A stretch of 13,526 bases of DNA, from IMG/VR virus record IMGVR_UViG_2713896773_000027; one strand, given 5' to 3'. Under the pieces are notes generated by a model that saw only the letters and a list, made by a program, of their open reading frames with translations, made no database searches and had not been told where the DNA came from. The position numbers were made by a program, and so were the translations under genes. The DNA is from a virus. Its lineage: Duplodnaviria > Heunggongvirae > Uroviricota > Caudoviricetes. Positions 1 through 13,526 of this stretch are shown piece after piece; the stretch's first letter is position 1, and the number at the start of each line of letters is the position of its first letter.

Positions 1-19
1 CTATTTGATAAATATTAAA

Positions 20-1315
20 TTAATTTTTCATTGCTTCGTTATGGGGCATGGTTGGGGCAAACTCGCTTAACTGTGTATTTAACAAAGCTACCTGTGCATT
101 ATTGTTTTCAGACATCCATTTTCCGTATACCTGAAATACCATTTGCGCATCTGCATGGCCCATCTGGTTTGCTATAAATGCCGGGTTAGCACCAGCTGTC
201 AGCGACCAGCAGGCATAAGTATGTCTCGACTGATATGATTTTCGATGGCGGAGTCCGGCACGTTTTATCGCTGCGTCCCACATCTGCCTTATTGAGTCAA
301 CGGTAAAATGGTCACCATAATTTTTTACTCTCGCTGACACTTCAGGTTGAAAAACAAAGGTGCATTTTTGTTTTTCTGTTCTGCCATACTCTCTGAGGTG
401 AACATCAATGATATGCTCTTTGCTCAGTCTCGTTAATGTCATCTGACTCCGGAGAGCGTCGATTGCTGGCTTAATAAGATGAATGACCCGATTGGTTCCC
501 GCCTGTGTTTTTGGTACCGTGAAACGGTCTTTTGCTAAATTTCTCCTGATCATCATTGTTCCATTTTTCAGATCTATGTCCTCCCATCCAAGTGCACACA
601 GCTCACCAGGGCGAACTCCAGTATAAACAGAAACACACCATAAATTTTTTGCTTGCTGATTTCTGCACGCATCGATAAGACGGATAAATTCTTCCCGCGA
701 AAGAGGATCCGGAATGGTTCTTGATTCCTTTAATGGCGAGATCCCCTTAAACGGATTATCTGCCAGGTAACCGTTATCAACACCAAACTGGAACACGGCG
801 TTAAGATTTGTCATGTAATTATTTACAGTTACAGCCGATCTCCCTGGTTGTGTAACAATATAGTTACTTTTGGGGATCTGGTATCCAGTCAGTAACTCTT
901 TACGAACCTCCAGTAATTTTTCTTTATTAATCGATGAGGCAAGATTTTTTTCACCGATTATGCTCAGGATATTTTTGATGACGGCACGGTATGTGTTGAG
1001 TGATGTTTTGGCGACTTCAGTTTCTTTCAGTGCCAGAAATTTTTCAGCCAGTTCTTTTATGGTTAAATCTTGTCGGGCCTCACCAAATTTTTCCAGATTG
1101 CGTGAGGAGGGAAACTGTTTTGCATAGTCGAAAACACCAGTTTTTATTGCGTAACAAACAGAGGAGCGTAGTTCACCTGCAACGCGCCTGTTTTTTGCTG
1201 TGTCAGGAACCCCCAGATTTTCCCTGACTCTTACGTCTTTATAAACAAACCAGATACGTAATTTCCCTCCATGGTTTTCCACGCCTGTCGGATATTTCAT
1301 TTCAACTTCTCTCAT
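20..1315 (-). CDS. int: phage tyrosine integrase (site-specific recombinase)
   Basis: 431-aa ORF. Tyrosine-recombinase signature segments are visible: GVRPGELCALGWEDIDL (box I Arg), SRHTYACWSL (box II), QMGHADAQMVFQVYGKW (catalytic Tyr region). It sits at the edge of the element next to an excisionase-like gene on the same strand, as in lambdoid int-xis modules. An alternative start at Met6 (MKYPTG) is possible. Confidence 0.9.
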   Translation of the reverse strand: MREVEMKYPTGVENHGGKLRIWFVYKDVRVRENLGVPDTAKNRRVAGELRSSVCYAIKTGVFDYAKQFPSSRNLEKFGEARQDLTIKELAEKFLALKETEVAKTSLNTYRAVIKNILSIIGEKNLASSINKEKLLEVRKELLTGYQIPKSNYIVTQPGRSAVTVNNYMTNLNAVFQFGVDNGYLADNPFKGISPLKESRTIPDPLSREEFIRLIDACRNQQAKNLWCVSVYTGVRPGELCALGWEDIDLKNGTMMIRRNLAKDRFTVPKTQAGTNRVIHLIKPAIDALRSQMTLTRLSKEHIIDVHLREYGRTEKQKCTFVFQPEVSARVKNYGDHFTVDSIRQMWDAAIKRAGLRHRKSYQSRHTYACWSLTAGANPAFIANQMGHADAQMVFQVYGKWMSENNNAQVALLNTQLSEFAPTMPHNEAMKN

Positions 1316-1334
1316 TAGTTAGTGTGGCTTTTAG

Positions 1335-1586
1335 TCAAGTAAGATGACGTCTTGGTCTCGCTGATGCCTGGCGCTCAATCCAGCGATCAATTTCTTCCAG
1401 GTTGTAAAAGCATGGACTGTTATCCCATGGCATACCGTCATGAGCGACATGCTTATATTCCCTTCCTTCCATAAACGATTTTTCCCGGGCCTTTTTTAAC
1501 GTACCTTTTTTTATTCCTTTCAGCGCAATTAACTGCTCTTCGGATACCCATTTGCCGGGAGAGACAATCATGATTACTTCGCTCAT
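1335..1586 (-). CDS. xis: excisionase-like small DNA-binding protein (Xis/AlpA-like)
   Basis: 83-aa ORF immediately upstream of int on the same strand. It is small and basic with a helix-turn-helix-like segment (LIALKGIKKGTLKKAREK) followed by a Trp-containing wing (EEIDRWIERQ). Position and size fit a recombination directionality factor; no homology search was run. Confidence 0.6.
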   Translation of the reverse strand: MSEVIMIVSPGKWVSEEQLIALKGIKKGTLKKAREKSFMEGREYKHVAHDGMPWDNSPCFYNLEEIDRWIERQASARPRRHLT

Positions 1587-1658
1587 CGATTTCTTTATCT
1601 CTTACATCAGACGAGCGCCGGTTGCAGAATACCAGTCACAACCGGCGACAGTTGAACA

Positions 1659-3290
1659 TTAAGAATCAGCCTGACTCGGGATCAGTTTTTGCCAGATAAC
1701 TGAAACGTATTTTGCCTGGTAACGGGCGTCATCAAGTGCATTATGGCGCTCACCTTCGAATGGAATAGCCGTTCTGGCATCGAAGTCTATGGCTTTCCCC
1801 AGCTCAACGATTGTGCGTACATCGCGATCGTTGTAGTAACGCCACGGGCAGGGGATCCCCTGCCGTTCGTATGAACGGCGCAAAATCGTGTTGTCGAAGT
1901 TGGCTCCATTTCCCCAAACCTGAACAAAAAATTCACCGGAGTTTTCGTCGATAAATTCTCGCAATTGTAACAGTGCATCATCTAACGGGATTTCATCGGT
2001 CATAATGGCAGATTGCGCTTCGCGTGATTGCTTAAGCCACCATTTAATGGTGTCCCGATCAATGACTCCGCCAGCAGTTTCCAGATCGATAGTCTTACTA
2101 AATTCCGGTCCCATATCTCCGGTTTGCGGATCGAAAAATATTGCACCTATTGAGATGATCGGGGCATCAGGATTTTTTCCCATGGTTTCAAGGTCGATCA
2201 TTAGATGGTCACACGTCCTGCTGGTGGATGTGATTTCGTGATGACCGTTCACCTTAATTGGGTGATCTGCCGTCTCGCCAGTTTCATTATCGCTATTGTG
2301 ATGCTGATTGCCGCCAGTGTTCTCCTTGTGTGGATGTTCAGCGCCTTCCATTTCCTCCGGATCATCTTCCTGAACTTCAACCTGATACTCTTCATCGAAT
2401 GTTTCTTGGTATGTTGCGTCGCCCATCACCGCGCCACAATCAGGGCAGTTGCCGCCGCCGGTCTGACCGCAGGCGGTGCAGACTTTTTCCACTTCCTGTT
2501 GCGCTACTGGTTCAGGCTGTTTCGTTTCTGGCTCGTTTTGTAACGCATTTGGACTGTTTTGTTCCGCTTTTTGGTAGTTCCGTTCCGATTCATGCTGGTT
2601 CTGGTTCACAGAATCGCGGGTCTGGAGCCCCTTAACCCATTTCGGATCATTCGGGTCACTAATCCCTTCAACAAATTCACCACGTGATGCAGCAAGCAAC
2701 TTATCGGCGTCAGGCTGGCTGATATTGGCTGCCTGCATAATTTTGTTTACTTCGTCAGCGGTAACTTTTATCGGCTCTGGTTGTTCTGAATCTTCAGCGG
2801 TATCTACATTTTGCGGTAAGCCCGTGTATGTGCCATTTTTTCGGGCAAAATATTCTTCTTTTGTGATTTCAGTGGCGCCAGCAGCCAGTGCCTTATCCAG
2901 ACCAGAGAGTTTGTTTGCGCGACCGTATTTTTCTCCGTCCTTATCTGCGAAGAGGAAATAGAACGGCCCCTCACGCTCTACAGATGGTTCAGCTTCCGGC
3001 GCGGTTTCATTTTTTGGGATATCAGATACCTCAGTTTCCACTGCATCAGTTTGTGTTTCTGATGACTGGAGAACATCAACAGTGCCCAGGTCTGTTTCTT
3101 CATTCTCAAACACGCCCTTTGTCGTCAGGTATTCGCAGATATATTTGTTCAGTGCTACGGGATCTTTGTGAATGTCGATCGGACGCTCACGGACAAGGCC
3201 AAAAATAGTTTGGCGGTCGTAGCGAAGGGCATCAGGCTGTTTGCGCATTGATGCCGAGATACGCTGAGGTAGCCTGAGTTTAACGGACAC
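1659..3290 (-). CDS. prophage exonuclease with C-terminal DnaQ-like (DEDDh) 3'-5' exonuclease domain and central Cys4 zinc-ribbon; probably 5'-truncated
   Basis: 543-aa ORF. The C-terminal third carries the three exonuclease motifs: Exo I MIDLETMG, Exo II VWGNGANFDNTIL, Exo III HNALDDARYQ. A Cys cluster CTACGQTGGGNCPDCG lies mid-protein. It occupies the position of recombination exonucleases in lambdoid early-left operons. The apparent GTG start at 3288-3290 lies inside the inferred IS3-family inverted repeat (3265-3290), and the first ATG (3246-3248) has no Shine-Dalgarno, so the native 5' end is probably lost. Confidence 0.7.
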   Translation of the reverse strand: MSVKLRLPQRISASMRKQPDALRYDRQTIFGLVRERPIDIHKDPVALNKYICEYLTTKGVFENEETDLGTVDVLQSSETQTDAVETEVSDIPKNETAPEAEPSVEREGPFYFLFADKDGEKYGRANKLSGLDKALAAGATEITKEEYFARKNGTYTGLPQNVDTAEDSEQPEPIKVTADEVNKIMQAANISQPDADKLLAASRGEFVEGISDPNDPKWVKGLQTRDSVNQNQHESERNYQKAEQNSPNALQNEPETKQPEPVAQQEVEKVCTACGQTGGGNCPDCGAVMGDATYQETFDEEYQVEVQEDDPEEMEGAEHPHKENTGGNQHHNSDNETGETADHPIKVNGHHEITSTSRTCDHLMIDLETMGKNPDAPIISIGAIFFDPQTGDMGPEFSKTIDLETAGGVIDRDTIKWWLKQSREAQSAIMTDEIPLDDALLQLREFIDENSGEFFVQVWGNGANFDNTILRRSYERQGIPCPWRYYNDRDVRTIVELGKAIDFDARTAIPFEGERHNALDDARYQAKYVSVIWQKLIPSQADS

Positions 3291-3591
3291 TCCTTCCTGA
3301 AATAGAATGGCATCAGAAGGAGCTAATAATGAGCAGAAAAACCCAACGTTACTCTAAAGAGTTCAAAGCCGAAGCTGTCAGAACGGTTCTTGAAAATCAA
3401 CTTTCGATCAGTGAAGGCGCTTCCCGATTATCTCTTCCTGAAGGCACTTTAGGACAATGGGTTACCGCCGCCAGAAAAGGGCTCGGTACTCCTGGTTCCC
3501 GCACGGTGGCTGAACTGGAATCTGAAATTCTGCAACTGCGTAAGGCGTTAAATGAAGCTCGCCTTGAGCGAGATATATTAAAAAAAGCAAC
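3265..3591 (+). mobile_element. IS3-family insertion sequence remnant (IS600-like), left end plus truncated orfA; interrupted by IS30
   Basis: The terminal sequence TGAGGTAGCCTGAGTTTAACGGACAC (3265-3290) starts with TG and ends with GGACAC like IS3-family left inverted repeats. It is followed after about 40 bp by an orfA-type ORF. The element stops abruptly at 3591, where the IS30 inverted repeat begins. No orfB or right inverted repeat is present in the window. Confidence 0.6.
3329..3591 (+). pseudogene. IS3-family transposase OrfA (IS600-like), truncated after codon 88 by IS30
   Basis: Translation MSRKTQRYSKEFKAEAVRTVLENQLSISEGASRLSLPEGTLGQWV...LERDILKKAT has the helix-turn-helix plus leucine-zipper layout of IS3-family OrfA. 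A Shine-Dalgarno AGGAG sits at 3318-3322. The last nucleotide of the final in-frame codon (ACT, Thr) is the first base of the IS30 terminal repeat. The 134-aa ORF on the track is an artefact running into IS30 and the N-run. Confidence 0.75.
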
Positions 3592-4595
3592 TGTAGATTC
3601 AATTGGTCAACGCAACAGTTATGTGAAAACATGGGGTTGCGGAGGTTTTTTGNNNNNNNNNNNNNNNNNNNNNNNNNNNNNNNNNNNNNNNNNNNNNNNN
3701 NNNNNNNNNNNNNNNNNNNNNNNNNNNNNNTAAGCGGGCTGTAGCTCACCTGACACTGTCTGAGCGCGAGGAGATACGAGCTGGTTTGTCAGCCAAAATG
3801 AGCATTCGTGCGATAGCTACTGCGCTGAATCGCAGTCCTTCGACGATCTCACGTGAAGTTCAGCGTAATCGGGGCAGACGCTATTACAAAGCTGTTGATG
3901 CTAATAACCGAGCCAACAGAATGGCGAAAAGGCCAAAACCGTGCTTACTGGATCAAAATTTACCATTGCGAAAGCTTGTTCTGGAAAAGCTGGAGATGAA
4001 ATGGTCTCCAGAGCAAATATCAGGATGGTTAAGGCGAACAAAACCACGTCAAAAAACGCTGCGAATATCACCTGAGACAATTTATAAAACGCTGTACTTT
4101 CGTAGCCGTGAAGCGCTACACCACCTGAATATACAGCATCTGCGACGGTCGCATAGCCTTCGCCATGGCAGGCGTCATACCCGCAAAGGCGAAAGAGGTA
4201 CGATTAACATAGTGAACGGAACACCAATTCACGAACGTTCCCGAAATATCGATAACAGACGCTCTCTGGGGCATTGGGAGGGCGATTTAGTCTCAGGTAC
4301 AAAAAACTCTCATATAGCCACACTTGTAGACCGAAAATCACGTTATACGATCATCCTTAGACTCAGGGGCAAAGATTCTGTCTCAGTAAATCAGGCTCTT
4401 ACCGACAAATTCCTGAGTTTACCGTCAGAACTCAGAAAATCACTGACATGGGACAGAGGAATGGAACTGGCCAGACATCTAGNNNNNNNNNNNNNNNNNN
4501 NNNNNNNNNNNNNNNNNNNNNNNNNNNNNNNNNNNAGTTCAAAACACCGAAAGAGATAATTGAAAGGGGTGTTGCATTGACAGATTGAATCTACA
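3592..4595 (+). mobile_element. IS30 insertion sequence; interior contains two N-runs (3653-3730, 4483-4535) that are assembly gaps of non-native length
   Basis: The ends are imperfect inverted repeats: left TGTAGATTCAATTGGTCAACGCAACAG (3592 onward), and the reverse complement of the right end (to 4595) is TGTAGATTCAATCTGTCAATGCAACAC. The internal ORF translates to the IS30 transposase sequence as I recall it. The flanks (..GCAAC | GTGTTG..) show no 2-bp target duplication. Confidence 0.85.
3732..4588 (+). CDS. insI: IS30 transposase (DDE family), visible portion; true start codon lies inside the first N-run and a mid-gene stretch inside the second
   Basis: The frame opening at 3732 reads KRAVAHLTLSEREEIRAGLSAKMSIRAIATALNRSPSTISREVQRNRG... 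and after the second gap ...KFKTPKEIIERGVALTD, ending at a TGA (4586-4588) inside the right inverted repeat. This matches the IS30 transposase. The interruptions are Ns, not mutations, so this is not necessarily a pseudogene. Confidence 0.85.
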
Positions 4596-4622
4596 GTGTT
4601 GTATTGTATAAATAGAGTACAT

Positions 4623-4664
4623 AAAGCCATCAATATTTCTATCGATGGCTTTATCTTTTTATTG
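4623..4664. terminator. hairpin (13-bp stem with one mismatch, 4-nt loop) followed by a T-run; likely terminator downstream of the tail-fibre assembly gene, possibly bidirectional
   Basis: AAAGCCATCAATA-TTTC-TATCGATGGCTTT (4623-4652) followed by ATCTTTTTATT on the + strand. On the - strand the same stem lies just after the tfa stop codon (4659-4661). It is 28 bp from the IS30 right end. Confidence 0.5.
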
Positions 4665-5237
4665 CGGGGCGACTGGCCACTCAACATCCGCTGCTACTGC
4701 TGTATCAACACGATTCAACAATACCCGATATGTCTTCCATGCAGTCAGTAACGATGCCTCTTCCTCCGTCGCAATATCCAAATCTACGGCATCCTGAAGT
4801 GGCGCAATATGCTCACTGGCCATCTGCATCAGGCTGTTTTTTGTTTCTTCCGCCTTCCGGATCCGGAACAGTTTTTCTGCTTCTGCATCTTTCACCCAGG
4901 CTGTGCCGTTCCACTTCTGAAACTCCCCTTCCGGGGATAACCAGGTGACATTTTCCGGTAATGGGCCAAGTTCAGAAATAAATAACGCGTCGCCGGAAGC
5001 CACGTCATAGACGGTTTTTCCCCGATGGTCTTCAACGAGATTCCACGATGCCTCATCACTGTTGAAAACGGCCACGAAGCCAGCCGGAATATCTGGCGGG
5101 GCAATATCGGTACTGTTTGCAGGCAGACCTGTATGAGGTGGAATGTATGCATCACCTTCACCAATAAACTCATTGGTTCCAGCCAGTAGATTATAAATTT
5201 TTATGGTCCGTGATTGTTCACTCATTCTGAATGTCAT
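4659..5237 (-). CDS. tfa: phage tail fibre assembly protein (Tfa / Mu U / P2 G family chaperone)
   Basis: 192-aa ORF. Its ATG overlaps the upstream tail-fibre stop by one base (TAATG), a classic Stf-Tfa coupling. The N-terminal region ([38 protein letters not shown]...) and size are typical of the Tfa family. Confidence 0.9.
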
Positions 5238-6853
5238 TATGCAAGCCTCACAATATAGTTAAATGCGATGTTTTTTACGGTGTTTTCTTCGTTACCCGTA
5301 GCGTTAACGGTGATGGTGTGTCCGTGGGGACCAATAATGACAGAATGGGCATGAGCACCAATGCCGATAGTGTGGTTATGGGCACCGATATATACATTGT
5401 GAGCATGCCCTCCTGCGCTCGACGTGGTACCAGTACCTAACGCAGCGTTATAACCGGCTGATACACCATTCCCCGCGCCAGTGTGACCAACAGGTATATT
5501 GTGTGAATGAGCTCCTGCGCTATTTGTGGTTTTTGTGCCGTAATCAAATGAACTGGTCGTTTTAGTACCGTAATCAAACGACGATGTGGTTTTCGTCCCC
5601 AAATCCGTACTGGATGCACTGGCGCTGTGGGTGTGCGATTTAATGCCGTCCTGTTCCTGAGACAATACTGCACGACCACTGGCGGGCTTGCCCTTAATCG
5701 TCCAGCTACGCATATCAGGGATCACACCTGACGGATAAGCGGCTGCAAGTTTCGGGTATGCAGATTTGTCAAAAGTCTGCCCCTGCATCAGGGCATAACC
5801 AGACGGAACGGTATCTGATGGCCAAGGGATCGGTGCGCCAACCGGATAAAGTTCATGCGGCGAAATATACAGCGAATAAACAGAACCGTCCGTTAATCCT
5901 TCCGGCTTATTAGCAGAATATGCTGGTGAAGTATGAATCGTTACGCTGGCATTACTGGTATAATCCCATTGAATATTTACACCAGTCGCATAATTTCCAA
6001 TAGCAACGTAAATATCGTAAGTGTCACCAGAAGTATTGACCCACGCAAAATTTGTAAACCCTGCCGATGTGCGCTGCCATAAAGCTCCAGTAATCCCCTT
6101 CGGATTACCGTTACCTGCACGCAAAACAAGTTCAGATATACCTGCCTGTTGAGGTGACCCCACGTTAAATCCCGCGCCACCAATCAACGTAATTGAAACA
6201 ACAGAACTTGCCTGCGGCATGGTTACAGTTGCCAGCTTGAACCATCCTGCACCACCACTAAAAGACATTGTTGTGGAGTTGATTGTGCCTATAGACCGTG
6301 GGTTAAGTTCAATATCTTTAGAACCATCAAACGAGACGCCATTGATAGCACATGCTGTCTGCAACTTGGTCGCTGTAGCCGCATTACCAGAGGTGTCCTG
6401 ATTCCCTTTGGCATTGACGCCGGGAATTGAATCTTTTGACGTATAGACCTGCGCCCATTCAGACCAGTTGGCAGAATCAGTATCCCGCCGCGAACGGATA
6501 TGTACGGGCGCATGGGCACCGCTCGTGCCACTCCAGCCAATGAATAACTCACCTTCGCCAGCAGCGGTGGCACCTTTAAGGTGAAGCACATTGCCATAGG
6601 GGGAAGGGTAGCCATTGTTGTATGCCTCATACAGCTGAATCCCGGATGTTCCCTGTGCATTCGCCTCCAGGGCCGTTACGCGACCGCGAGATACCAGAGT
6701 ATTGATATTAATGTCAGCCGAACCATCGAACCTGACGCCATTAATGTTTCTGGCTGTTTTTAATTTCGTCGCGGTGTCGGCGTTCCCCGCCAGCGCCCCG
6801 GTGATCCCACCGTTGAAAGTCTGGCGTGCACTCCATGTGTTAGCCGTGCTCAA
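5237..6853 (-). CDS. phage tail fibre protein, C-terminal variable (receptor-binding) cassette without its own start; reading frame stays open upstream through the crossover site to about 6931
   Basis: Contains two copies of the phage tail-fibre repeat ([26 protein letters not shown] and [28 protein letters not shown]), tandem [10 protein letters not shown] repeats, and C-terminal HxH repeats (HSHN, HAHN, HNHT, HAHS, HGHT). The listed start is a TTG chosen by the ORF finder. Translating upstream in frame gives ...[15 protein letters not shown]... with no ATG and no Shine-Dalgarno, consistent with a silent Sv'-type segment of an invertible host-range region. Confidence 0.85.
5528..5599. repeat. 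approximately 30-bp imperfect tandem repeat (about 2.4 copies) inside the tail-fibre coding region
   Basis: GGTTTTTGTGCCGTAATCAAATGAACTGGTC / GTTTTAGTACCGTAATCAAACGACGATGTG / GTTTTCGTCCCC on the + strand, encoding the [10 protein letters not shown] repeats on the - strand. Confidence 0.5.
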
Positions 6854-6883
6854 CAGGGGGATCTTTTCACCGCTTGTGCCAAG

Positions 6884-6909
6884 TTCTCTTAAACCAAGGT
6901 TTAGGATTG
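6884..6909. other. hix/gix/cix/pix-like 26-bp crossover site for the adjacent serine invertase
   Basis: TTCTCTTAAACC-AA-GGTTTAGGATTG is an imperfect palindrome with a central AA. By my recollection of hixL (TTCTTGAAAACCAAGGTTTTTGATAA) it matches at 19 of 26 positions. It overlaps the last codons of the invertase gene and lies in-frame within the upstream extension of the tail-fibre cassette. No second copy was found in the window. Confidence 0.6.
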
Positions 6910-7461
6910 AAATGATGACGCCGGAAACTTCTTATAAAGCGTGGAAACAGCCACATCATAGATGATTGCAACCTGCTTACGGGGGATGCCCTTCTCGAGC
7001 AATCGCCGCATTTGCTGCCATGTTTCTTCTTGGTATTTAGGCCGACGCCCACCTATACGACCTTCTGCGCGAGCTGCATCAAGTCCAGCGCGTGTACGTT
7101 CAACGATAAGCTCACGTTCCATTTCTGCCAGCGCCCCCATTACGTGAAAGAAAAAGCGCCCCATTGGTGTACTGGTGTCGATGGAGTCAGTGAGACTCCG
7201 GAAGTTAATGCCTCTGTCACGCAGCTCTTCCACCAGCACAACTAAGTGACGCATGCTGCGCCCAAGACGATCTAACTTCCATACGACTAGGGTGTCACCT
7301 CTGGAAAGCATACGGAGAACCTTTTTTAACCCAGGGCGTTCAGCCTTTTTGCCGCTCGCCTTGTCCTCAAAAATTAGCTTACATCCTGCGCTTTCAAGGG
7401 CATTTCGTTGTAAAGCAGTGTTTTGTTCATTTGTTGATACGCGTACATAGCCAATTAGCAT
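6901..7461 (-). CDS. pin: serine-recombinase DNA invertase (Hin/Gin/Cin/Pin family)
   Basis: 186-aa ORF starting [27 protein letters not shown]... with the catalytic Ser in the YVRVST motif, a resolvase/invertase catalytic domain ([16 protein letters not shown]...) and a C-terminal helix-turn-helix ([22 protein letters not shown]). It is very close to the E. coli Pin sequence as I recall it. The symbol denotes family membership, not a confirmed ortholog. Confidence 0.9.
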
Positions 7462-7588
7462 ATTTTCTGCTCACCATAGTTATTCATAGCAAGCTGCGGA
7501 TTTTAATTAACAGAAACCAGTGTGTGTGGAAATCACAAAGTGCATACCGTGCCCCAATGATGTTTTATTGAAAAGCGGGGTTACTTTA

Positions 7589-7870
7589 ATGTTTGATTTA
7601 ACCATATTTTTTATAACCATCCTTGGAGGCGTGCATTCGTTTCTGAATGGGGTTCGTGAAAAACGTTACGAAGCGTCATGCAGGCAATTGATGGCCGAGT
7701 GTATTGCTGCCGTACTTGCAGGCTTTATAGGCATGTATTTCGCGGAATATAAGGGTATGGATGAAAGTCTTCAGAATTGCGTGACTATTATTTGCAGCAT
7801 CAATAACAGGCTCATTCTTGAAAAGTTACAAAGGATTATCGATTCGTACCTCAGTAGCAATGCCTCTTAA
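7589..7870 (+). CDS. small membrane protein with two predicted transmembrane segments; holin-like (hypothesis)
   Basis: About 93 aa from the ATG at 7589; the track's GTG at 7520 has no Shine-Dalgarno. Hydrophobic stretches LTIFFITILGGVHSFL and CIAAVLAGFIGMYFA. Paralogous to the next ORF (GG..TFL..VR-D/E..; AGxxAxxLG motif). Function is inferred from size and topology only. Confidence 0.55.
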   Translation: MFDLTIFFITILGGVHSFLNGVREKRYEASCRQLMAECIAAVLAGFIGMYFAEYKGMDESLQNCVTIICSINNRLILEKLQRIIDSYLSSNAS

Positions 7871-7937
7871 GCAACAAATGACCGGTTGAGAAGTTACTTT
7901 GCATACCATTACCTCCTGACAACGTAGGAGGGAACTT

Positions 7938-8267
7938 GTGCTTGACACACAGGAATTAGCTCCAGTTGCTATTGCGCTCCTGCTTTCAGTAATTGGTGGG
8001 ATAGGCACGTTCCTGATGGATGTCCGAGACGGTCGCCAGTCTGGCAATTTGTTGGGATTGGTTACGGAGATCTTTGTTGCAGTGACAGCTGGCGCGGTGG
8101 CGTACCTATTGGGGCAACACGAGGGCTGGGAGTTATCAATTACGTACTTAATGGTAACGATAGCCAGCAATAACGGTCATGAGGTGATTTCAGGGATGAA
8201 ACGAGTGAATATCGATAGCATTCTGAATGTTCTTACAAGTTTGGTGAAAAAGGGAGGCGGGAAATGA
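7938..8267 (+). CDS. small membrane protein with two to three predicted transmembrane segments; holin-like paralog (hypothesis)
   Basis: 109 aa. GTG start preceded by a strong Shine-Dalgarno AGGAGG (7925-7930). Hydrophobic stretches VAIALLLSVIGGIGTFLM and IFVAVTAGAVAYLLG. Its stop overlaps the next gene's ATG (ATGA). Confidence 0.7.
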   Translation: MLDTQELAPVAIALLLSVIGGIGTFLMDVRDGRQSGNLLGLVTEIFVAVTAGAVAYLLGQHEGWELSITYLMVTIASNNGHEVISGMKRVNIDSILNVLTSLVKKGGGK

Positions 8268-8707
8268 TTGGCTGGGGTGTATGCGTTCTTGCGTTAGCCT
8301 TAGCCGATCGCTATTTGCTAAAACGCAAGGACATCACGCATTTAGAACTTGGTGATGTGGAAATTAAACCGGGTTTCATCCGGGTGCCGTTCAAATACCG
8401 GTCTAAATTCCCGTTTTTGCGCGGCGCAACAGTCAGATATTGGATCCGCGATGTTCAGAAGCCGACGACAGTGATTGAAGGCGAACAACGTTGTTTGACG
8501 TCGGCTGAACAGGGCGAAAACAGTGAATGGTTGTACATACCCACTGAATATATGGGTAAAGGAGAGCGACTGTGGCATTTCAACGTCATGGTTACGCATG
8601 GCGACTCGTTCATTAACCCGTTGTATCGGATTTTCCCTGTTACTCAGCAAATCCGCAGAAGTTACGTAATAAATCTCGCACAGGATGTGTCAGATGACGA
8701 AAAATAA
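8264..8707 (+). CDS. hypothetical protein with N-terminal signal-anchor-like hydrophobic segment
   Basis: 147 aa. ATG preceded by GGGAGG, overlapping the upstream stop. N-terminus MIGWGVCVLALALADRY is hydrophobic. No recognisable catalytic motif by eye. Confidence 0.65.
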   Translation: MIGWGVCVLALALADRYLLKRKDITHLELGDVEIKPGFIRVPFKYRSKFPFLRGATVRYWIRDVQKPTTVIEGEQRCLTSAEQGENSEWLYIPTEYMGKGERLWHFNVMVTHGDSFINPLYRIFPVTQQIRRSYVINLAQDVSDDEK

Positions 8708-9296
8708 GTATGCAACGGTCGATTTTGACCAGGTTAATGAAAAGGGGCTGAAATCCCTTATCGCGGCGATCAATAAAACCGGGGTTACGGTAATTGAGGT
8801 TGACTCCAGCAACCGCGCAACAACGAAAGATGGCGTTAAAGTTAAAACCGCAAAGCTGGTTCTTAACGACGGACAAATCCTTGCCATACAGGTAAACGAT
8901 ACTGGCGATATATCGTCTGTGAAACTGAATGGAAAAGCTATTCCTAACGCTCAGTCGCCGGATATCAAGACGCTTGGTACCGTCATGGGACAGGCGGCCC
9001 GCAAAAACTCCGCAAAATTCCAGAAATCACTGATCGCCAAAGCGAAGCGTGTAGCCAATCCGGTAGACAAGAAACCGGCAGTTAAATCCAACTTTCAGCG
9101 CCTGCAAGAAGCAAAACAGCGGAATGCTCAGGTGGTTGCCGCTTATAAGTCCGCGCAGAATTCGGTGTCTTTCAATCAACAGCAGATCACTGATTTGCGG
9201 GCGAAGCTGGATAAGGAGACGGGCCGACTCAATAACGAAAAGGCACGGAATGGCGAACTCAAACGTCGTCTTAAGCAACTGAAAGCAGGAAATTAA
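8694..9296 (+). CDS. hypothetical protein; N-terminal domain shared with the next ORF plus C-terminal basic coiled-coil
   Basis: About 200 aa from the ATG at 8694 (Shine-Dalgarno AGGA at 8682-8685); the track start at 8685 is less likely. The start overlaps the upstream gene's end. Shares LNDGQILAIQ ... KNSAKFQK with the next ORF. C-terminus is rich in K/R/Q/E heptad-like sequence. Confidence 0.7.
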   Translation: MTKNKYATVDFDQVNEKGLKSLIAAINKTGVTVIEVDSSNRATTKDGVKVKTAKLVLNDGQILAIQVNDTGDISSVKLNGKAIPNAQSPDIKTLGTVMGQAARKNSAKFQKSLIAKAKRVANPVDKKPAVKSNFQRLQEAKQRNAQVVAAYKSAQNSVSFNQQQITDLRAKLDKETGRLNNEKARNGELKRRLKQLKAGN

Positions 9297-9297
9297 C

Positions 9298-10329
9298 ATG
9301 GAACAGTTCAATATCAATAAAGGGGTGACGATCAAGCCTGGGCTTGACGTGCTTCCCCCGCCAGTGACTGATGATGAATATCGCGCATTAATGGCCGGTG
9401 AGGACCGCTATCTGATGACGGAATCCAACACCCTGGAGGAAATCGAGGCTACGTTCTTCTATGACACGCCGATCCACTGGTGTGCTACGGATTTACTGGA
9501 GGCGATTAGTTCTACTCGTTTGCAGTTACACCGGACCATGCAGGCATTTGTCCGGGCATTGAACCAGAAGCTGAATGGCACCGGAATCTCTGCGGGGAGT
9601 GATAAAACGGGGGATGTGGCCCAGAGCGGCGCGCGCGCGATCGGCGGTGCTGAAATTGGCCGGGCACGGAACGTTAACGGGCTGCCGGTCCTGCCAGCCA
9701 TTATTCCGCTCAGTGATGGTCAGACTATCAGCATTCTGTTTCATAGCCCGACAGCGGAAAACCGGATCACCAATAGCGATACGCTGGTTGCTTTCCAGTT
9801 CTTACTGAATAAAAAAGACGTTACTCACACCGTTGCTCCGATGAGTGGACGTGATATGACGCTGGCGCAGGTCACCATGAAACTTGCCAACCTTGCAGAG
9901 AAAAACTCGGCAAAATTCCAGCGTGCGCAGAAGAAGAAAAAAGCCCTGGTTGATGAAATAACCCAACTACAGGCTGACAGTGACCAGAAAGAGGATGCCA
10001 TGAGCGACCTCGCGGATCAGGTGGCAGCGGTAGAAGGGCAGAAGGTAGATCTGGAGCAGAAAATTAACGCTGTTGCATCGGAAGCGGATTCTCTTTATGA
10101 AGAGAATGAGCGTTTGCAGACGGAGATTGATCAGCTCAATCGCACTGGTGGGCGCGAAACCATTGCTCCTGCGGGGATGACTGGTGGACACTCTCGCGCG
10201 ATGACGGATCGCCTTGCAAGTATCAAAAATCGTATGCATATGAACGGGGAAGTGACGCTCAGTAATGGTGCATCAATGAAGCAATTCATTGAGGACGGTG
10301 AAGGGTATATCCAGTTAACTGGGATGTGA
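9298..10329 (+). CDS. hypothetical protein, paralogous domain (DGQ...KNSAKFQ) plus long acidic coiled-coil
   Basis: 343 aa. ATG one base after the upstream stop, Shine-Dalgarno AGGA at 9285-9288. Motifs LSDGQTISIL and EKNSAKFQRAQKKKK. Coiled-coil segment LVDEITQLQADSDQKEDAMSDLADQVAAVEGQKVDLEQKINAVASEADSLYEENERLQTEIDQL. Confidence 0.8.
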   Translation: MEQFNINKGVTIKPGLDVLPPPVTDDEYRALMAGEDRYLMTESNTLEEIEATFFYDTPIHWCATDLLEAISSTRLQLHRTMQAFVRALNQKLNGTGISAGSDKTGDVAQSGARAIGGAEIGRARNVNGLPVLPAIIPLSDGQTISILFHSPTAENRITNSDTLVAFQFLLNKKDVTHTVAPMSGRDMTLAQVTMKLANLAEKNSAKFQRAQKKKKALVDEITQLQADSDQKEDAMSDLADQVAAVEGQKVDLEQKINAVASEADSLYEENERLQTEIDQLNRTGGRETIAPAGMTGGHSRAMTDRLASIKNRMHMNGEVTLSNGASMKQFIEDGEGYIQLTGM

Positions 10330-11714
10330 AGACGCTGGATAAACAGGTTGATGTAACTCCCGATGAAGATGCTGTTATGCAGAAAATCAGTGGTGGCGTC
10401 TCCATCGCCGGGATTAACGACATCATTTCCTGTGACGATTTCTACCGTTTCCAGCAGCGCGGCATGATCAAAATCACTGACTCATACGGCGTTCAGACTA
10501 CAGAGTCAGGCTATAGCATTGATTTTGTTGGTACCTATACGGACCCACTGAAGCATGCGGTTTACCCGGATCGCCGTGACGGCGCGCTGAAGTCGTCAAT
10601 TGCAAAATGGGTGCTTGGTATGATGTCGGAAGGGAATAACCGCCAGATCCGTTCGGCAGAAACATTCCTGGTTGAACTGTTTGGCTCCAATTATGGCGAT
10701 GTAATCGCGTCATACGGAGATACGCTATCCCCTGAAGCAATTCAGGAGAAAATAGCGGATGCGATCGCCAGAATGCCGGAAAAAACAAGCCAGGGGGCTA
10801 CTCGTAACGGGGATTCTGAACTTGAAGTCACCAATGCCATTTTCGGTACCAATGAGTTCCGGGCGTCAGATTATGAGATCACCACAGCACAGTTTGGCAC
10901 CATTGGCATTTACAGCAATAAAGCCGAGATCAAGCAGGCAATGGACGCAGCAAGCGCGCGCATCGCAGCAGAACGGGAAGCCAATCTGAATCATGCAGTC
11001 GCCGCACTGACTCAATCGTGGGTAACAGCAATCAGGGAGGCCGCCACCACAGGGAAAATCACACCTGCAATTGCGGATGTCGTAAACGACGGCTCTAAAT
11101 TTATGGATGCCTATCAAATGGATGCGGTGCAGTTGCCATCAGCCTATGGCCAACTCAGCTATCGCATGACCTACAACCTGGTATCAATGTTTACTGACCT
11201 TGCCATCCTTGGGCTGGTGGACCTTAACGAGGTTACGCCGGAATTACTCAGCATGCGCAAGAATCATGTTGAGATATTGCAGAGAATTAACACGGTTCTT
11301 GCCGGGCGCACCGATGAAGAGAAACAGGCCGACGCTGATCGGATAAACCTGGCCCTAGGCAACATCACGGAGGAAGAAATTGCCGCCAGAAACGAGAAAC
11401 AAGAAGAGTTATCATCAATACAGGGTGATGCCACCAGCATAGCTCAGTCTCTTGGGCTGAATTATCGCGTATCCACCGCCGACCTGAAGATGATGTACGC
11501 ACCAAAATTCGCCGCTGGCGAGGTATTTGGGCTTCAGGAAGCCTCCGGCATGAAAGGGGTTCTTTTCCGTGCGAAAGACGCAATCAAGGCGAAATTCGGC
11601 GCTCGCTGGTTGCCAGCGAAGGCGAAGAACAGCGACTTCCCAGGTAACTGGTGGATTATCGAGACAAAACACAACGTGGCGGACGTTCTGGCCGTCATCC
11701 AACAATACGCATAA
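10326..11714 (+). CDS. hypothetical protein (462 aa), translationally coupled to the upstream gene
   Basis: GTG start overlapping the upstream TGA (GTGA). Long uninterrupted ORF. No Walker, nuclease or other catalytic motif recognised by eye. Confidence 0.8.
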   Translation: MKTLDKQVDVTPDEDAVMQKISGGVSIAGINDIISCDDFYRFQQRGMIKITDSYGVQTTESGYSIDFVGTYTDPLKHAVYPDRRDGALKSSIAKWVLGMMSEGNNRQIRSAETFLVELFGSNYGDVIASYGDTLSPEAIQEKIADAIARMPEKTSQGATRNGDSELEVTNAIFGTNEFRASDYEITTAQFGTIGIYSNKAEIKQAMDAASARIAAEREANLNHAVAALTQSWVTAIREAATTGKITPAIADVVNDGSKFMDAYQMDAVQLPSAYGQLSYRMTYNLVSMFTDLAILGLVDLNEVTPELLSMRKNHVEILQRINTVLAGRTDEEKQADADRINLALGNITEEEIAARNEKQEELSSIQGDATSIAQSLGLNYRVSTADLKMMYAPKFAAGEVFGLQEASGMKGVLFRAKDAIKAKFGARWLPAKAKNSDFPGNWWIIETKHNVADVLAVIQQYA

Positions 11715-11720
11715 CAGGAG

Positions 11721-11738
11721 CGCCCGGTTCGCCGGGCG
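11721..11738 (+). promoter_or_regulatory. intercistronic GC-rich stem-loop with TTCG tetraloop between a Shine-Dalgarno sequence and the next start codon
   Basis: CGCCCGG-TTCG-CCGGGCG. AGGAG (11716-11720) lies immediately 5' of the stem and the ATG at 11748 lies 9 nt 3' of it. There is no U-tract, so it is unlikely to be a simple terminator. Confidence 0.5.
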
Positions 11739-11747
11739 TCGCATAAT

Positions 11748-12188
11748 ATGGCCACATTATCTGATACAATAAAACCGAATAAAACATATCTTGAGGCGGT
11801 GCTGCGTACGGCGTTGTTAGGAAAGACAGAAGACGAATACGTTGATTTCTTCCTGTCAGGGCTACGCGGGCGATTACTGAAAAATCCCCGCCTGTACCGC
11901 AGCTATGGTCCATACTGGCCGGAAATTAAAAAATTATTACTGGAGCGCGGTTATGGTAATTTCGGTCGTCTCGTTGACCGTGACGTTCGCAAAATTTACC
12001 GTTATGACCGTCCGGCGCTGACGCTCATAGCCGCGACGCTCTACAGCCAGGAGCGTTTTGATAATGGTCAGATATACTCAGCCTGGCATTTACTGCCAGT
12101 GCCTGAAGAGGTTGACGACCAGGACTATGAGTTTGAGTCTTACGATTTGGAAGTTGAAGCCTTGGCACAGGCTGGAGAGAAAACTTGA
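11748..12188 (+). CDS. hypothetical protein (146 aa)
   Basis: ATG start 9 nt after the stem-loop. Acidic C-terminus (EEVDDQDYEFESYDLEVEALAQAGEKT). No recognisable domain by eye. Confidence 0.7.
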   Translation: MATLSDTIKPNKTYLEAVLRTALLGKTEDEYVDFFLSGLRGRLLKNPRLYRSYGPYWPEIKKLLLERGYGNFGRLVDRDVRKIYRYDRPALTLIAATLYSQERFDNGQIYSAWHLLPVPEEVDDQDYEFESYDLEVEALAQAGEKT

Positions 12189-12433
12189 AGAAGCGATACT
12201 ACACAGTAAAGCATGGGACGCTACGAGCATTGCAAGAGTTTGCTGATAAGCATAACGTTGAGGTGCGCAGGGAAGGGGGAAGTAAAGCTCTGCGCATGTA
12301 CCGTCCTGACGGAAAATGGCGGACGGTCGTCGATTTCAAAACTAACAGTGTTCCCCAGGGCGTCCGCGACCGGGCATTCGAAGAATGGGAGCAGATCATC
12401 ATAGATAACGCATTGCTTCTGAACGCTGATTAA
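12185..12433 (+). CDS. small basic hypothetical protein (82 aa), translationally coupled
   Basis: TTG start overlapping the upstream TGA (TTGA), with Shine-Dalgarno GGAGAG at 12171-12176. Last gene of the co-directional string before a hairpin. Confidence 0.6.
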   Translation: MKKRYYTVKHGTLRALQEFADKHNVEVRREGGSKALRMYRPDGKWRTVVDFKTNSVPQGVRDRAFEEWEQIIIDNALLLNAD

Positions 12434-12443
12434 TAATCATTTA

Positions 12444-12464
12444 AAGCCCATATGATATGGGCTT
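12444..12464 (+). terminator. hairpin (10-bp stem AAGCCCATAT / ATATGGGCTT) separating the coupled operon from the AT-rich downstream gene; weak U-tract
   Basis: A perfect inverted repeat is seen directly. It is followed by AAACAACAGG on the + strand, so intrinsic terminator function is uncertain. It coincides with a sharp shift in base composition. Confidence 0.4.
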
Positions 12465-12515
12465 AAACAACAGGATCGATATACAGTGTTAGTTAAATAT
12501 ATAGGCGAGAGTTAT

Positions 12516-13526
12516 ATGGAAAAACCTTGGCCGGGCATGCACATTAGAACATCTTGTCTGGAGGATGGTTTCTTTAGAGCAACGCAACCAAAGTATCTTA
12601 ATGATCCGTCGAGTGAGTCGCGACTTCTTCCATTTTTTAATAAATTTTCACCAGCCGATTACGCATGGGCTAGAAATGAATTTAAGAAAATGCAACGAGA
12701 TCCATCTTATGTCCCATCTATACAAGAGTTAGAGTATTATTTAAAACCTTGCGGGAAACGATACGGAGAGGATTTTCCACACTTGTTAATCAATGAAGGT
12801 TTTACCTCAATGGATTCATATGATGAATCTAAACTCCAAGAAATAGTAACGTACCTTAACGATTATTTAGTAGAAGCCGTAAGCTGTCATCTTGGTGTAT
12901 TCTCTCTATCAAAAAGTGATTGCAATCTACACATGTGGACTCATTATGCATCGATAGGAAAGGGGTTTGCTGTAGTTTTCGATGAAACACACGATTTTTT
13001 CAAAATATATAGGCCGTGTGATGTTAGTTATAATCCAGAAGATAGAGCATCTGTAACCTATTATAAAGGCGCTGTGCGATTTAATGGCTATCCTGCGCCA
13101 TCGAGGAATATAGATATAAAGAATAAAGATAATACATTGCATGGGATCTTAAATCGAGATTCAGTTCGCGAGCTTTTTATTAATAGGCTCCTTTATACAA
13201 AAGGTGAAGAGTGGCTTCCTGAAAATGAAAGTAGAATTATTTTTCCTTTAGCTGATTGCGAGAGAAAGATAGGAAGTATTGTCTCTCCATCGATTGATGA
13301 TTGCCTATTAAATGAGTATCCTGATGTTTTTCATGACTATCATGAAATTAACTTAAAGAAAATTCCTTTTTCTGCATTCAAGCAAATTACCTTAGGGTAT
13401 AACATGACTGAAAAAGATAAAAATATAATTTTAGATAAAGTTAGTTCGAATAAAGAATTGTCTCACGTCAACGTATTACATTCAAAACTTGATATATACG
13501 GAAAGGTTGTGGTTAAGCCCATGTAA
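12516..13526 (+). CDS. AT-rich orphan protein of unknown function (about 336 aa); candidate horizontally acquired accessory or defence gene
   Basis: ATG at 12516 with GAGAG 5 nt upstream; the track's GTG at 12486 is less likely. The ORF ends exactly at the window end (TAA). Visibly lower GC than all neighbours. Contains CHLGVFSLSKSDCNLHMWTHYASIGKGFAVVFDE. No known catalytic motif recognised by eye. Confidence 0.8.
   Translation: MEKPWPGMHIRTSCLEDGFFRATQPKYLNDPSSESRLLPFFNKFSPADYAWARNEFKKMQRDPSYVPSIQELEYYLKPCGKRYGEDFPHLLINEGFTSMDSYDESKLQEIVTYLNDYLVEAVSCHLGVFSLSKSDCNLHMWTHYASIGKGFAVVFDETHDFFKIYRPCDVSYNPEDRASVTYYKGAVRFNGYPAPSRNIDIKNKDNTLHGILNRDSVRELFINRLLYTKGEEWLPENESRIIFPLADCERKIGSIVSPSIDDCLLNEYPDVFHDYHEINLKKIPFSAFKQITLGYNMTEKDKNIILDKVSSNKELSHVNVLHSKLDIYGKVVVKPM

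Follow-up and report, generated by a model that had tools for sequence, protein, structure and literature searches.

Identity of the region

The five co-directional reading frames at positions 8685-12433 of the sequence analysed here (13,526 nucleotides, IMG/VR record IMGVR_UViG_2713896773_000027; the window) are almost certainly part of a defective remnant of a P1-type (Punavirus) plasmid prophage, a non-functional fossil and not a new system. Judged by its sequence, the system is a known one: the broken leftover of two well-known P1 anti-restriction operons fused by a deletion. By BLASTN against P1, window positions 6302-10319 align with P1 nt 32818-28802 at 97.4% DNA identity and positions 10316-12433 with P1 nt 11867-9750 at 97.7%, with no P1 homology elsewhere in the window. 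The two blocks overlap by 4 nt, and the junction was aligned base by base in a three-way alignment. P1 carries lydA-lydB-hdf-darA-ddrA-ddrB and darB-ulx-lxc as operons ~17 kb apart on the same strand, and the order in the window is lydC-lydA-lydB-hdf-darA adjoining cin, then the 3' end of darB, ulx and lxc. A first-pass annotation had proposed a Dar-related module that was either a fossil or something new; the relationship to Dar is borne out by parts 97-100% identical to P1 proteins, and the fossil is the option favoured by the evidence.

The DNA invertase gene cin (6901-7461, minus strand; 99.5% amino acid identity to P1 Cin) lies outside the operon in a P1-like position. All other features are on the plus strand. 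They begin with lydC (7589-7870), a holin homologue 90.3% identical to P1 LydC that matches Pfam Phage_holin_3_3, and LPdar (-22 and -10 boxes, 7891-7909), the late promoter of the P1 darA operon as annotated in NC_005856, around which a 61-nt stretch of P1 recurs with zero mismatches at 7882-7942. Next come the holin gene lydA (7938-8267; 100% identity to P1 LydA) and lydB (8264-8707), encoding the LydA antagonist (98.6% identity to P1 LydB; Pfam LydB, E = 8e-104). The proximity of lydA-lydB-darA to cin, put forward in the first-pass annotation, is the exact P1 arrangement.

The five frames themselves stand as originally called. The first is an intact hdf (8685-9296; 203 aa, 99.0% identical to P1 Hdf), which matches Pfam DarA_N and PHROG 1620, 'Hdf-like antirestriction' (E = 5e-80); its start is ATG 8685 as in P1 RefSeq, versus 8694 (200 aa) in PGAP and in the first-pass annotation. 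The second is a truncated pseudogene, darA' (9298-10329; 343 aa, 97.4% identical to P1 DarA residues 1-341), and the third a 3' gene fragment, 'darB (10326-11714; 462 aa, 98.3% identical to P1 DarB residues 1794-2255). Both ulx (11748-12188; 146 aa, 98.6% identical to P1 Ulx; PHROG 1629, 'Ulx-like anti-restriction', E = 4.5e-66) and lxc, or bof (12185-12433; 82 aa, 100% identical to P1 Lxc), are intact, and the sigma-70 promoters P1lxc (12112-12140) and P2lxc (11934-11962) are identical to their P1 counterparts. Lxc is a modulator or co-repressor of the P1 C1 repressor and not a Dar component.

The N-terminal block noted as common to the first two proteins, and compared with that of Hdf and the DarA N-terminus, is well supported. 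Pfam DarA_N (PF18788; gathering cut-off 27 bits) matches Hdf with 77.3 bits (E = 1.1e-21) and the darA' product with 146.6 bits (E = 4e-43), and direct BLASTP of the two gives 31% identity over 90 aa (E = 5e-4) in an alignment that spans both the DGQ and KNSAKFQ motifs. The paralogy is genuine and already published, the DarA_N domain having been defined from DarA-N and Hdf (PMC5512222).

The deletion junction

The P1-homologous blocks meet at TAAC (10316-10319, plus strand), a 4-bp microhomology between darA (P1 nt 28802) and darB (P1 nt 11867). What had been taken for a coherent five-gene operon is an N-terminal stump of darA and a C-terminal stump of darB, brought together by a deletion of ~16.9 kb that fuses darA at codon 341 to darB at codon 1791 in a different reading frame. 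The darA' product consists of residues 1-341 of the 639 in DarA, then Gly, Met and a stop codon, which come from darB sequence read in the wrong frame. Sequence derived from darB begins at 10316, and the 'GTG start' of the 462-aa frame is the internal codon for DarB Val1794, with only residues 1794-2255 of 2255 encoded.

The darA' product matches PDB 9ukm chain I over residues 1-341 only, keeping DarA_N and losing DarA_C (residues 411-472). The hexon-binding, alpha-helix and penton-binding domains of DarA occupy residues 70-382, and the penton-binding loop (342-346) falls beyond the truncation point (PMC12810830). The 'darB product aligns with positions 1805-2278 of 2278 in PHROG 1685, at its C-terminal end, and has no Pfam or PADLOC domain and no recognisable fold. 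Residues 1-30 of DarB, the N-terminal capsid-targeting signal (PMC9024508), are absent from the remnant, and the N6_Mtase (145-290) and SNF2/Helicase_C (833-1517) domains lie in the deleted part. That both fragments are pseudogenes is already known from NCBI annotation: at a 100%-identical locus in E. coli NCTC9040, PGAP labels darA' as 'internal head protein, incomplete, missing C-terminus' and 'darB as 'helicase, incomplete, missing N-terminus'.

The P1 interval missing here comprises the 3' part of darA, ddrA, ddrB, hxr, isaB, IS1, isaA, ssb, lyz, lydD/E, pro, prt and the 5' part of darB. The portal (prt), prohead protease (pro) and lysozyme genes thus fall inside the deletion; as the first-pass annotation suspected, there are no head genes in the window, nor are there any in the 20 kb that flank the locus to each side in NCTC9040. 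Between lydC and codon 341 of darA, the remnant agrees with the P1 darA operon (NC_005856 nt ~24.5-31.2 kb) in gene content and order, in overlaps and in its late promoter, but darA is cut after that codon and ddrA, ddrB and everything downstream are gone. With the P1 darB-ulx-lxc operon (NC_005856 nt 9750-17236) it shares the last 462 darB codons, a hairpin, ulx, lxc and the lxc promoters, whereas the first 1790 darB codons and the PdarB promoter are lacking. On the 3' side of lxc, the remnant has a DUF2971 gene where P1 has the EcoP1I mod/res genes; a DUF2971 gene occupies this position in some P1-like phages as well (for example, MH422554).

These features are accounted for by a single illegitimate recombination at the TAAC microhomology, which removed everything from darA codon 341 to darB codon 1791 and left an intact hdf, the two stumps, an intact ulx and an intact lxc. 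Since then, the remnant has been carried passively on IS1-rich plasmids and trimmed from both sides by insertion sequences.

Gene spacing

Tight packing of the five frames had been read as evidence for stoichiometric co-expression. The GTGA and TTGA overlaps and a 1-bp spacer are indeed present in the sequence, but the 462-aa and 146-aa frames are not coupled, being separated by a 33-bp spacer with a GC-rich stem-loop (11720-11739, plus strand; 8-bp stem, TTCG loop, as read from the sequence), which lies within the block 97.7% identical to P1. The 1-bp spacer (hdf TAA, then C, then darA ATG) and the TTGA overlap of ulx and lxc (12185-12188) are the same in P1, from which the lydB/hdf, hdf/darA and ulx/lxc overlaps or abutments are inherited. 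The GTGA at 10326-10329 lies between two gene fragments, GTG being the Val1794 codon of DarB and TGA an out-of-frame darB triplet; this apparent coupling is a chance product of the deletion. The GTG at 10326 is preceded directly by GGGAT and has no Shine-Dalgarno sequence at a useful spacing.

Translational coupling is therefore not found at every junction between genuine genes. Nor is the region a stoichiometric five-gene unit: two of its five members are only pieces of genes, and it is a chimera of two P1 operons, with ulx and lxc belonging to the separate darB operon. Scanning the plus strand of the module with the consensus revealed no sigma-70-like promoter, and the upstream genes have no recognisable promoter other than LPdar, a late promoter dependent on Lpa. 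Mechanical lists of open reading frames can, as here, make a deletion scar between pseudogene stumps resemble a packed, 'translationally coupled' operon.

Distribution and erosion

Copies of the junction were located through complete E. coli genomes, PLSDB and exact-protein look-ups. The junction is present in 3 of 5426 complete E. coli genomes, and its 36-nt sequence has no exact match in GTDB species-representative genomes. Over 4.5-8.9 kb, all junction-bearing copies share 99.95% identity or more; they differ by no more than 3 nt in ~5.7 kb and are too alike for a selection test. The homology among copies ends on the left at 4643, 7803, 7972 or 7992 and on the right at 12449, 12511, 13491 or beyond, and these ends adjoin IS1 or IS5. 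In the window, the remnant adjoins IS30 within a chromosomal island. The same junction, nearly invariant on IS1-trimmed plasmids, indicates one deletion event followed by clonal spread, and the copies document an IS-eroded P1 fossil travelling on E. coli plasmids and into chromosomes.

In a large public collection, the exact 343-aa product occurs on 413 contigs and the exact 462-aa product on 323, which is more than a dead-end accident might suggest and counts against the fossil interpretation; clonal spread with a successful plasmid explains these counts.

Expected function of the remnant

The P1 Dar proteins are components of the virion head that are injected together with the DNA, which they shield in cis against type I restriction. 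Hdf and DarA form a lining on the inside of the capsid, and loading of DdrA, DdrB, Ulx and DarB depends on them. P1 particles made after deletion of DarA or Hdf are without all other Dar proteins (PMC12810830). Of what a functional Dar system comprises, the remnant retains full-length Hdf and an intact Ulx and lacks full-length DarA, DdrA, DdrB, the N-terminal signal, methyltransferase and helicase of DarB, and the P1 head machinery (major capsid protein, portal Prt and protease Pro) that packages and injects the proteins. With the head genes, DdrA, DdrB, the C-terminal 298 residues of DarA and the N-terminal functions of DarB gone, and with Lpa-dependent LPdar as the sole recognisable upstream promoter, no anti-restriction activity should be possible. 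We infer that the remnant cannot act as an anti-restriction system and that LPdar is presumably silent. Against its being a fossil, both stumps remain open reading frames and hdf, ulx, lxc, lydA, lydB, lydC and cin are intact, so point mutations have not yet started to erode the remnant.

A partly functional role as a helper in trans is highly improbable. Here the Lpa of a P1-like phage would switch on LPdar in the remnant and yield extra Hdf and Ulx, or a truncated DarA that poisons head assembly; by modulating anti-restriction or the determination of head size in the phage, it would act in interference or exclusion. An LPdar identical to that of P1 and intact hdf and ulx would allow this, and in one plasmid context a P1 lpa-family gene (PF25716) lies ~7 kb away. 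However, wild-type P1 brings its own complete dar gene set, insertion sequences are trimming the remnant from both sides, and only the 3 of 5426 complete E. coli genomes noted above carry it. PADLOC assigned none of the five proteins to a defence system, returning only weak hits (E = 1.5e-4 to 9e-3) between SMC-type coiled-coil proteins and the part of DarA' that is itself coiled-coil.

A recurrent breakpoint in darB

Other P1-type deletion derivatives from E. coli have likewise retained ulx-lxc and the 3' end of darB, namely pMRE162, A65EC p1 and the Lyz-DarB fusion plasmids; p15B is a further defective P1-derived plasmid, cited in the P1 annotation. Their left partners are darB-internal, Tn3-family tnpA, bplA or lyz, and among the P1-derived segments compared only the present lineage retains hdf and the darA stump. 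Three of the other derivatives share the exact darB breakpoint found here. In all, four independent rearrangements with unrelated left partners (darA codon 341, Tn3-family tnpA codon 46, darB nt 4262 and bplA codon 269) end at the same darB nucleotide, in ..CGGG-TAAC-TGGGATG.. (TAAC at window 10316-10319, DarB Asn1791). The interrupted motif C-R-G-N-TAAC-Y-G is common to all partner sites.

The recurrence of the breakpoint is an observation, for whose cause there are only candidates. The darB TAAC site may be a sequence-specific hot spot of illegitimate recombination that shapes the decay of P1-type plasmid prophages, although we consider this unlikely. Enzyme-directed breakage and rejoining could be responsible, for instance subunit exchange by topoisomerase II at cuts staggered by 4 nt, or the action of an unknown recombinase; alternatively, there could be selection for a translatable C-terminal module of DarB. 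The site may be of use for studying short-homology illegitimate recombination in natural plasmids.

Three other origins were considered and set aside. For Cin recombination at quasi-cix sites, the real cix (TTCTCTTAAACC-AA-GGTTTAGGATTG) is unlike the junction, and no cix-like central dinucleotide marks the point of crossover. A mobile element with its start at CTGGGATG, whether the pseudo-end of an IS5 with YTAR as target or an IS200/IS605-type element after TAA, was dismissed: distant DarB homologues (25-33% identity) show no break in collinearity at this point, and the IS5 end agrees at only ~7 of 16 positions. Successive nested deletions from one ancestral junction are unlikely, since the C-terminal modules carry different alleles and the bplA event best fits a P1-type darB (GGTA).

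In the pMRE162 internal deletion and the A65EC tnpA fusion (DNA search) and in the bplA fusion (protein search), the DarB module is in frame. Its in-frame preservation by three other independent rearrangements counts against the fossil interpretation and could hint at selection. One could suppose that the right half (DarB ~1791-2255, ulx and lxc) is kept for the benefit of the plasmid, for example, if Lxc serves the C1 of an incoming P1 as co-repressor or if the module, translated by a restart at GTGA, has an activity of its own; we regard such retention as exceedingly improbable. Besides these fusions, it has in its favour an in-frame Lyz-DarB fusion on 247 contigs, the intact lxc promoters, and an extreme DarB C-terminus that is conserved in distant homologues (invariant G377, G408, L413, K421, W442 and W443). 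Fusions found through protein clusters are, however, ascertained for being in frame, and the A65EC module is itself cut by IS1 after ~105 codons and so has not been preserved. The module has no recognisable fold or domain, is in distant relatives never a separate protein but always the C-terminal part of a DarB-like one of 2100-2460 aa, and would here have to be translated from a GTG that lacks a suitably spaced Shine-Dalgarno sequence.

A novel five-protein system unrelated to known families, for which the sole point is that Pfam returns nothing for three of the five frames, is refuted by the 97-100% identity of all five to named P1 proteins or parts of them, which settles the locus as holding no new anti-restriction or defence system. 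The lack of a catalytic motif, noted at first pass, is accounted for by the deletion, which took the methyltransferase and SNF2 helicase of DarB.

A defective remnant of the phage P1 dar region

The locus belongs to a system that is already known, here in a defective state: a deletion has fused its parts, and insertion sequences have eroded it. The five co-directional ORFs claimed by the first-pass annotation are present in the mechanical ORF list, all on the + strand: hdf (8685/8694-9296, 203 or 200 aa), darA' (9298-10329, 343 aa), 'darB (10326-11714, 462 aa), ulx (11748-12188, 146 aa) and lxc (12185-12433, 82 aa). Three small + strand ORFs (7589-7870, 7938-8267 and 8264-8707) precede hdf, and the invertase gene cin lies on the - strand at 6901-7461. 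Profile searches give names to nearly all ORFs of the region. The small upstream ORFs are two LydA-type holins and LydB (Pfam, E = 8e-104), the PHROG families 'Hdf-like antirestriction' and 'Ulx-like anti-restriction' are matched by module proteins, and the 462-aa ORF aligns to the extreme C-terminus of the DarB family profile (PHROG positions 1805-2278 of 2278).

A megablast search against phage genomes divides the region into two P1-like blocks that join inside the reported feature. By BLASTN against NC_005856, the left block (window 6302-10319) corresponds to P1 nt 32818-28802 at 97.4% identity and the right block (10316-12433) to P1 nt 11867-9750 at 97.7%, with a 4-nt overlap between them. 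According to the P1 annotation, the left block holds the end of the C segment, cin, lydC, the late promoter LPdar, lydA, lydB, hdf and the 5' part of darA, and the right block holds the 3' end of darB, ulx and lxc. Amino acid identities to P1 are 100% for LydA and Lxc, 99.5% for Cin, 99.0% for Hdf, 98.6% for LydB and Ulx, 98.3% for DarB 1794-2255, and 97.4% for DarA 1-341. The first-pass statement that lydA-lydB-darA adjoins cin in P1 was thus correct, as was that on a likeness between Hdf and the DarA N-terminus. The first-pass observation is confirmed in part. Of its interpretation, the Dar-related half holds, and 'operon' and 'novel system' do not.

The paralogy of the first two proteins, with their shared motif block, is real. 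Pfam DarA_N (PF18788) is found in both the 203-aa and 343-aa proteins (E = 1.1e-21 and 4e-43); the pairwise BLASTP signal, weak in itself, spans the DGQ and KNSAKFQ motifs (31% identity, 90 residues, E = 5e-4). This relationship is already in the published literature. The helical regions that follow DarA_N are capsid-binding alpha-helix domains seen by cryo-EM (PMC12810830), which explains the weak matches to coiled-coil proteins (Pfam, PADLOC); these mean nothing beyond that.

The darA'/'darB junction

In base-by-base alignment, P1 darA reads ...TATATCCAGTTAAC before the breakpoint and CGATCC... after it, P1 darB reads ...AAATCGGGTAAC before and TGGGATGTGAAG... after, and the window reads ...TATATCCAGTTAACTGGGATGTGAAG... 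across it. The junction is that of a simple deletion whose endpoints share 4 bp of microhomology, TAAC, at window 10316-10319. Since the P1 genes concerned all lie on one strand, a single deletion of ~16.9 kb, as measured on the P1 reference, removes the whole interval: darA codons 342-639, ddrA, ddrB, hxr, isaB, IS1, isaA, ssb, lyz, lydD/E, pro, prt and darB codons 1-1790.

At the fusion the two genes are out of register, and the darA frame reads Gly-Met from darB sequence and then TGA. The darB frame has stop codons upstream, and its earliest 'start' is the GTG at 10326. The GTGA overlap, earlier taken for translational coupling, is therefore an accident of the deletion, its GTG being internal DarB Val1794 and its TGA out-of-frame darB sequence. 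The lydB/hdf overlap, the 1-bp hdf-darA spacing and the ulx/lxc TTGA are unchanged from P1. Between the 'darB stump and ulx lies a 33 bp spacer with a GC-rich hairpin (11720-11739), inherited from P1, that has an 8-bp stem and a TTCG tetraloop and lacks a T run. One may ask whether it has a role in RNA stability or processing.

Genes and domains lost

Pfam domains of the full-length P1 proteins place DarA_C (DarA residues 411-472), the DarB N6-adenine methyltransferase (145-290) and the DarB SNF2/Helicase_C region (833-1517) inside the deleted DNA. DarB carries its capsid-targeting signal within the first 30 residues (PMC9024508). For DarA, the cryo-EM model spans residues 70-382 and includes a penton-binding domain; the second loop of this domain (342-346) lies immediately past the truncation point of the window protein (PMC12810830), and PDB 9ukm aligns with that protein across 1-341 only. 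Dar proteins work once packaged in the head and then ejected with the DNA, and particles without DarA or Hdf carry none of the other Dar proteins (PMC12810830).

The remnant has no head genes, DdrA or DdrB, its DarA is halved, and its DarB stump lacks both the targeting signal and the enzymatic domains. LPdar, the only promoter annotated upstream, is identical to its P1 counterpart, which depends on the phage Lpa activator. For these reasons, we infer that the module cannot act as an anti-restriction system. A consensus scan of the module's + strand found no sigma-70-like promoter. The lxc gene retains its own sigma-70 promoters; Lxc is annotated in P1 as a modulator of the C1 repressor, not a Dar protein.

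Spread of the junction

Of 5426 complete E. coli genomes, three contain the junction: NCTC9040, on a plasmid integrated into the chromosome, and those with plasmids NZ_LT883139 and NZ_CP010179. Two PLSDB plasmids have it as well. In the genome records, PGAP already calls both stumps pseudogenes, darA' as 'internal head protein, incomplete, missing C-terminus' and 'darB as 'helicase, incomplete, missing N-terminus'. In a larger collection, the exact 343-aa product is found on 413 contigs and the exact 462-aa product on 323. In an unbiased sample of ~130 contigs with the darB sequence directly right of the junction, three have the junction and the others intact darB.

Most of the ten contexts whose genomic surroundings were compared have a Rep3/ParAB plasmid backbone, usually with encapsulin and DyP peroxidase as cargo, and in each of the ten the remnant adjoins IS1 or IS5. 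Identity to the window is 99.95% or higher for every copy, with homology ending at 4643, 7803, 7972 or 7992 on the left and at 12449, 12511, 13491 or beyond on the right. Near-identical copies with differing ends point to one ancestral deletion followed by clonal spread and progressive IS erosion. Metagenome contig L126 has the same junction; its flanks show mosaic divergence, and its C segment is whole and has the opposite orientation, which implies that the deletion is older than the IS truncations. Among plasmid and chromosomal copies L004-L014, the IS1/IS5 abutment points vary on both sides of the remnant, and in several a Rep3/ParAB plasmid backbone holds encapsulin, DyP-peroxidase and formate-dehydrogenase cargo immediately downstream of it.

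A recurrent breakpoint in darB

The DarB C-terminal module has just 49 relatives among 1.84 billion representative proteins (full HMMER scan). In distant relatives (25-33% identity) it invariably forms the C-terminal end of a DarB-like protein of 2100-2460 aa, and the short relatives are near-identical fragments. Four independent rearrangements whose left partners are unrelated (darA, Tn3-family tnpA, darB-internal and bplA) break at one and the same darB nucleotide (TAAC before TGGGATG, DarB Asn1791), a modest curiosity that is worth a note. The sites lie at window 10316-10319 (darB side), at ~5001 in contigs L015 and L016, and at ~6810 in L106. In pMRE162, a deletion within darB (nt 4262 to 5362) keeps the reading frame and ends at the same TAA(C). 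Codon 46 of tnpA, naturally CCAGCTAAC followed by CGCC, is fused in frame to this point in plasmid A65EC p1, as is bplA codon 269 (naturally GCAGGTA followed by CCGATG) in a draft genome. Other, recurrent P1 deletions end nearby at a different nucleotide, for example a Lyz-DarB fusion (P0018, 557 aa, 247 contigs), which joins the Lyz N-terminus in frame to the last ~500 DarB residues, and a 783-aa fusion (P0031) with another N-terminal part in frame with those residues. One fusion of this type is annotated 'lysozyme (plasmid)'.

All partner sites and the darB site share the motif C-R-G-N-TAAC-Y-G, which occurs only three times on the same strand in 42.5 kb of P1, two of these being the endpoints of the window's deletion. 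This rarity and sharing indicate that extended imperfect microhomology accounts for the choice of partner. Microhomology does not account for the repeated use of this darB site. Gyrase-type breakage there, or selection for a translatable DarB C-terminal module, might speculatively underlie it. Cin quasi-sites and a mobile-element end were tested as causes and rejected.

Flanking DNA

The P1-derived DNA has an abrupt left edge at 4596, where it adjoins an IS30 end, and this 4595/4596 boundary was confirmed in two independent assemblies (L098 and L124). Positions 1-4595 are a common chromosomal int/AlpA/exonuclease/IS30 island, 100% identical in many E. coli chromosomes; N-masked runs lie inside IS copies at 3653-3730 and 4483-4535. 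A 543-aa protein (1659-3290, - strand) combines a long acidic Gln/Glu-rich N-terminal region and a Cys-rich patch with a C-terminal DEDDh 3'-5' exonuclease domain (PADLOC DEDDh, E = 1e-5). Its gene adjoins a P4-type integrase and an AlpA-like excisionase and is common across E. coli chromosomes. Of the invertible C segment, only half is left (4659-6853), with the C-terminal part of one tail fibre and a single tail-fibre assembly gene beside an intact cin, in an allele unlike the P1 reference. Whereas P1 has the EcoP1I mod/res genes 3' of lxc, the window has a low-GC (32-38%) DUF2971 gene (12486-13526), as do some P1-like phages, such as MH422554. Among the candidate defence families of PADLOC, this gene matches PDC-S31 (E = 3e-16).
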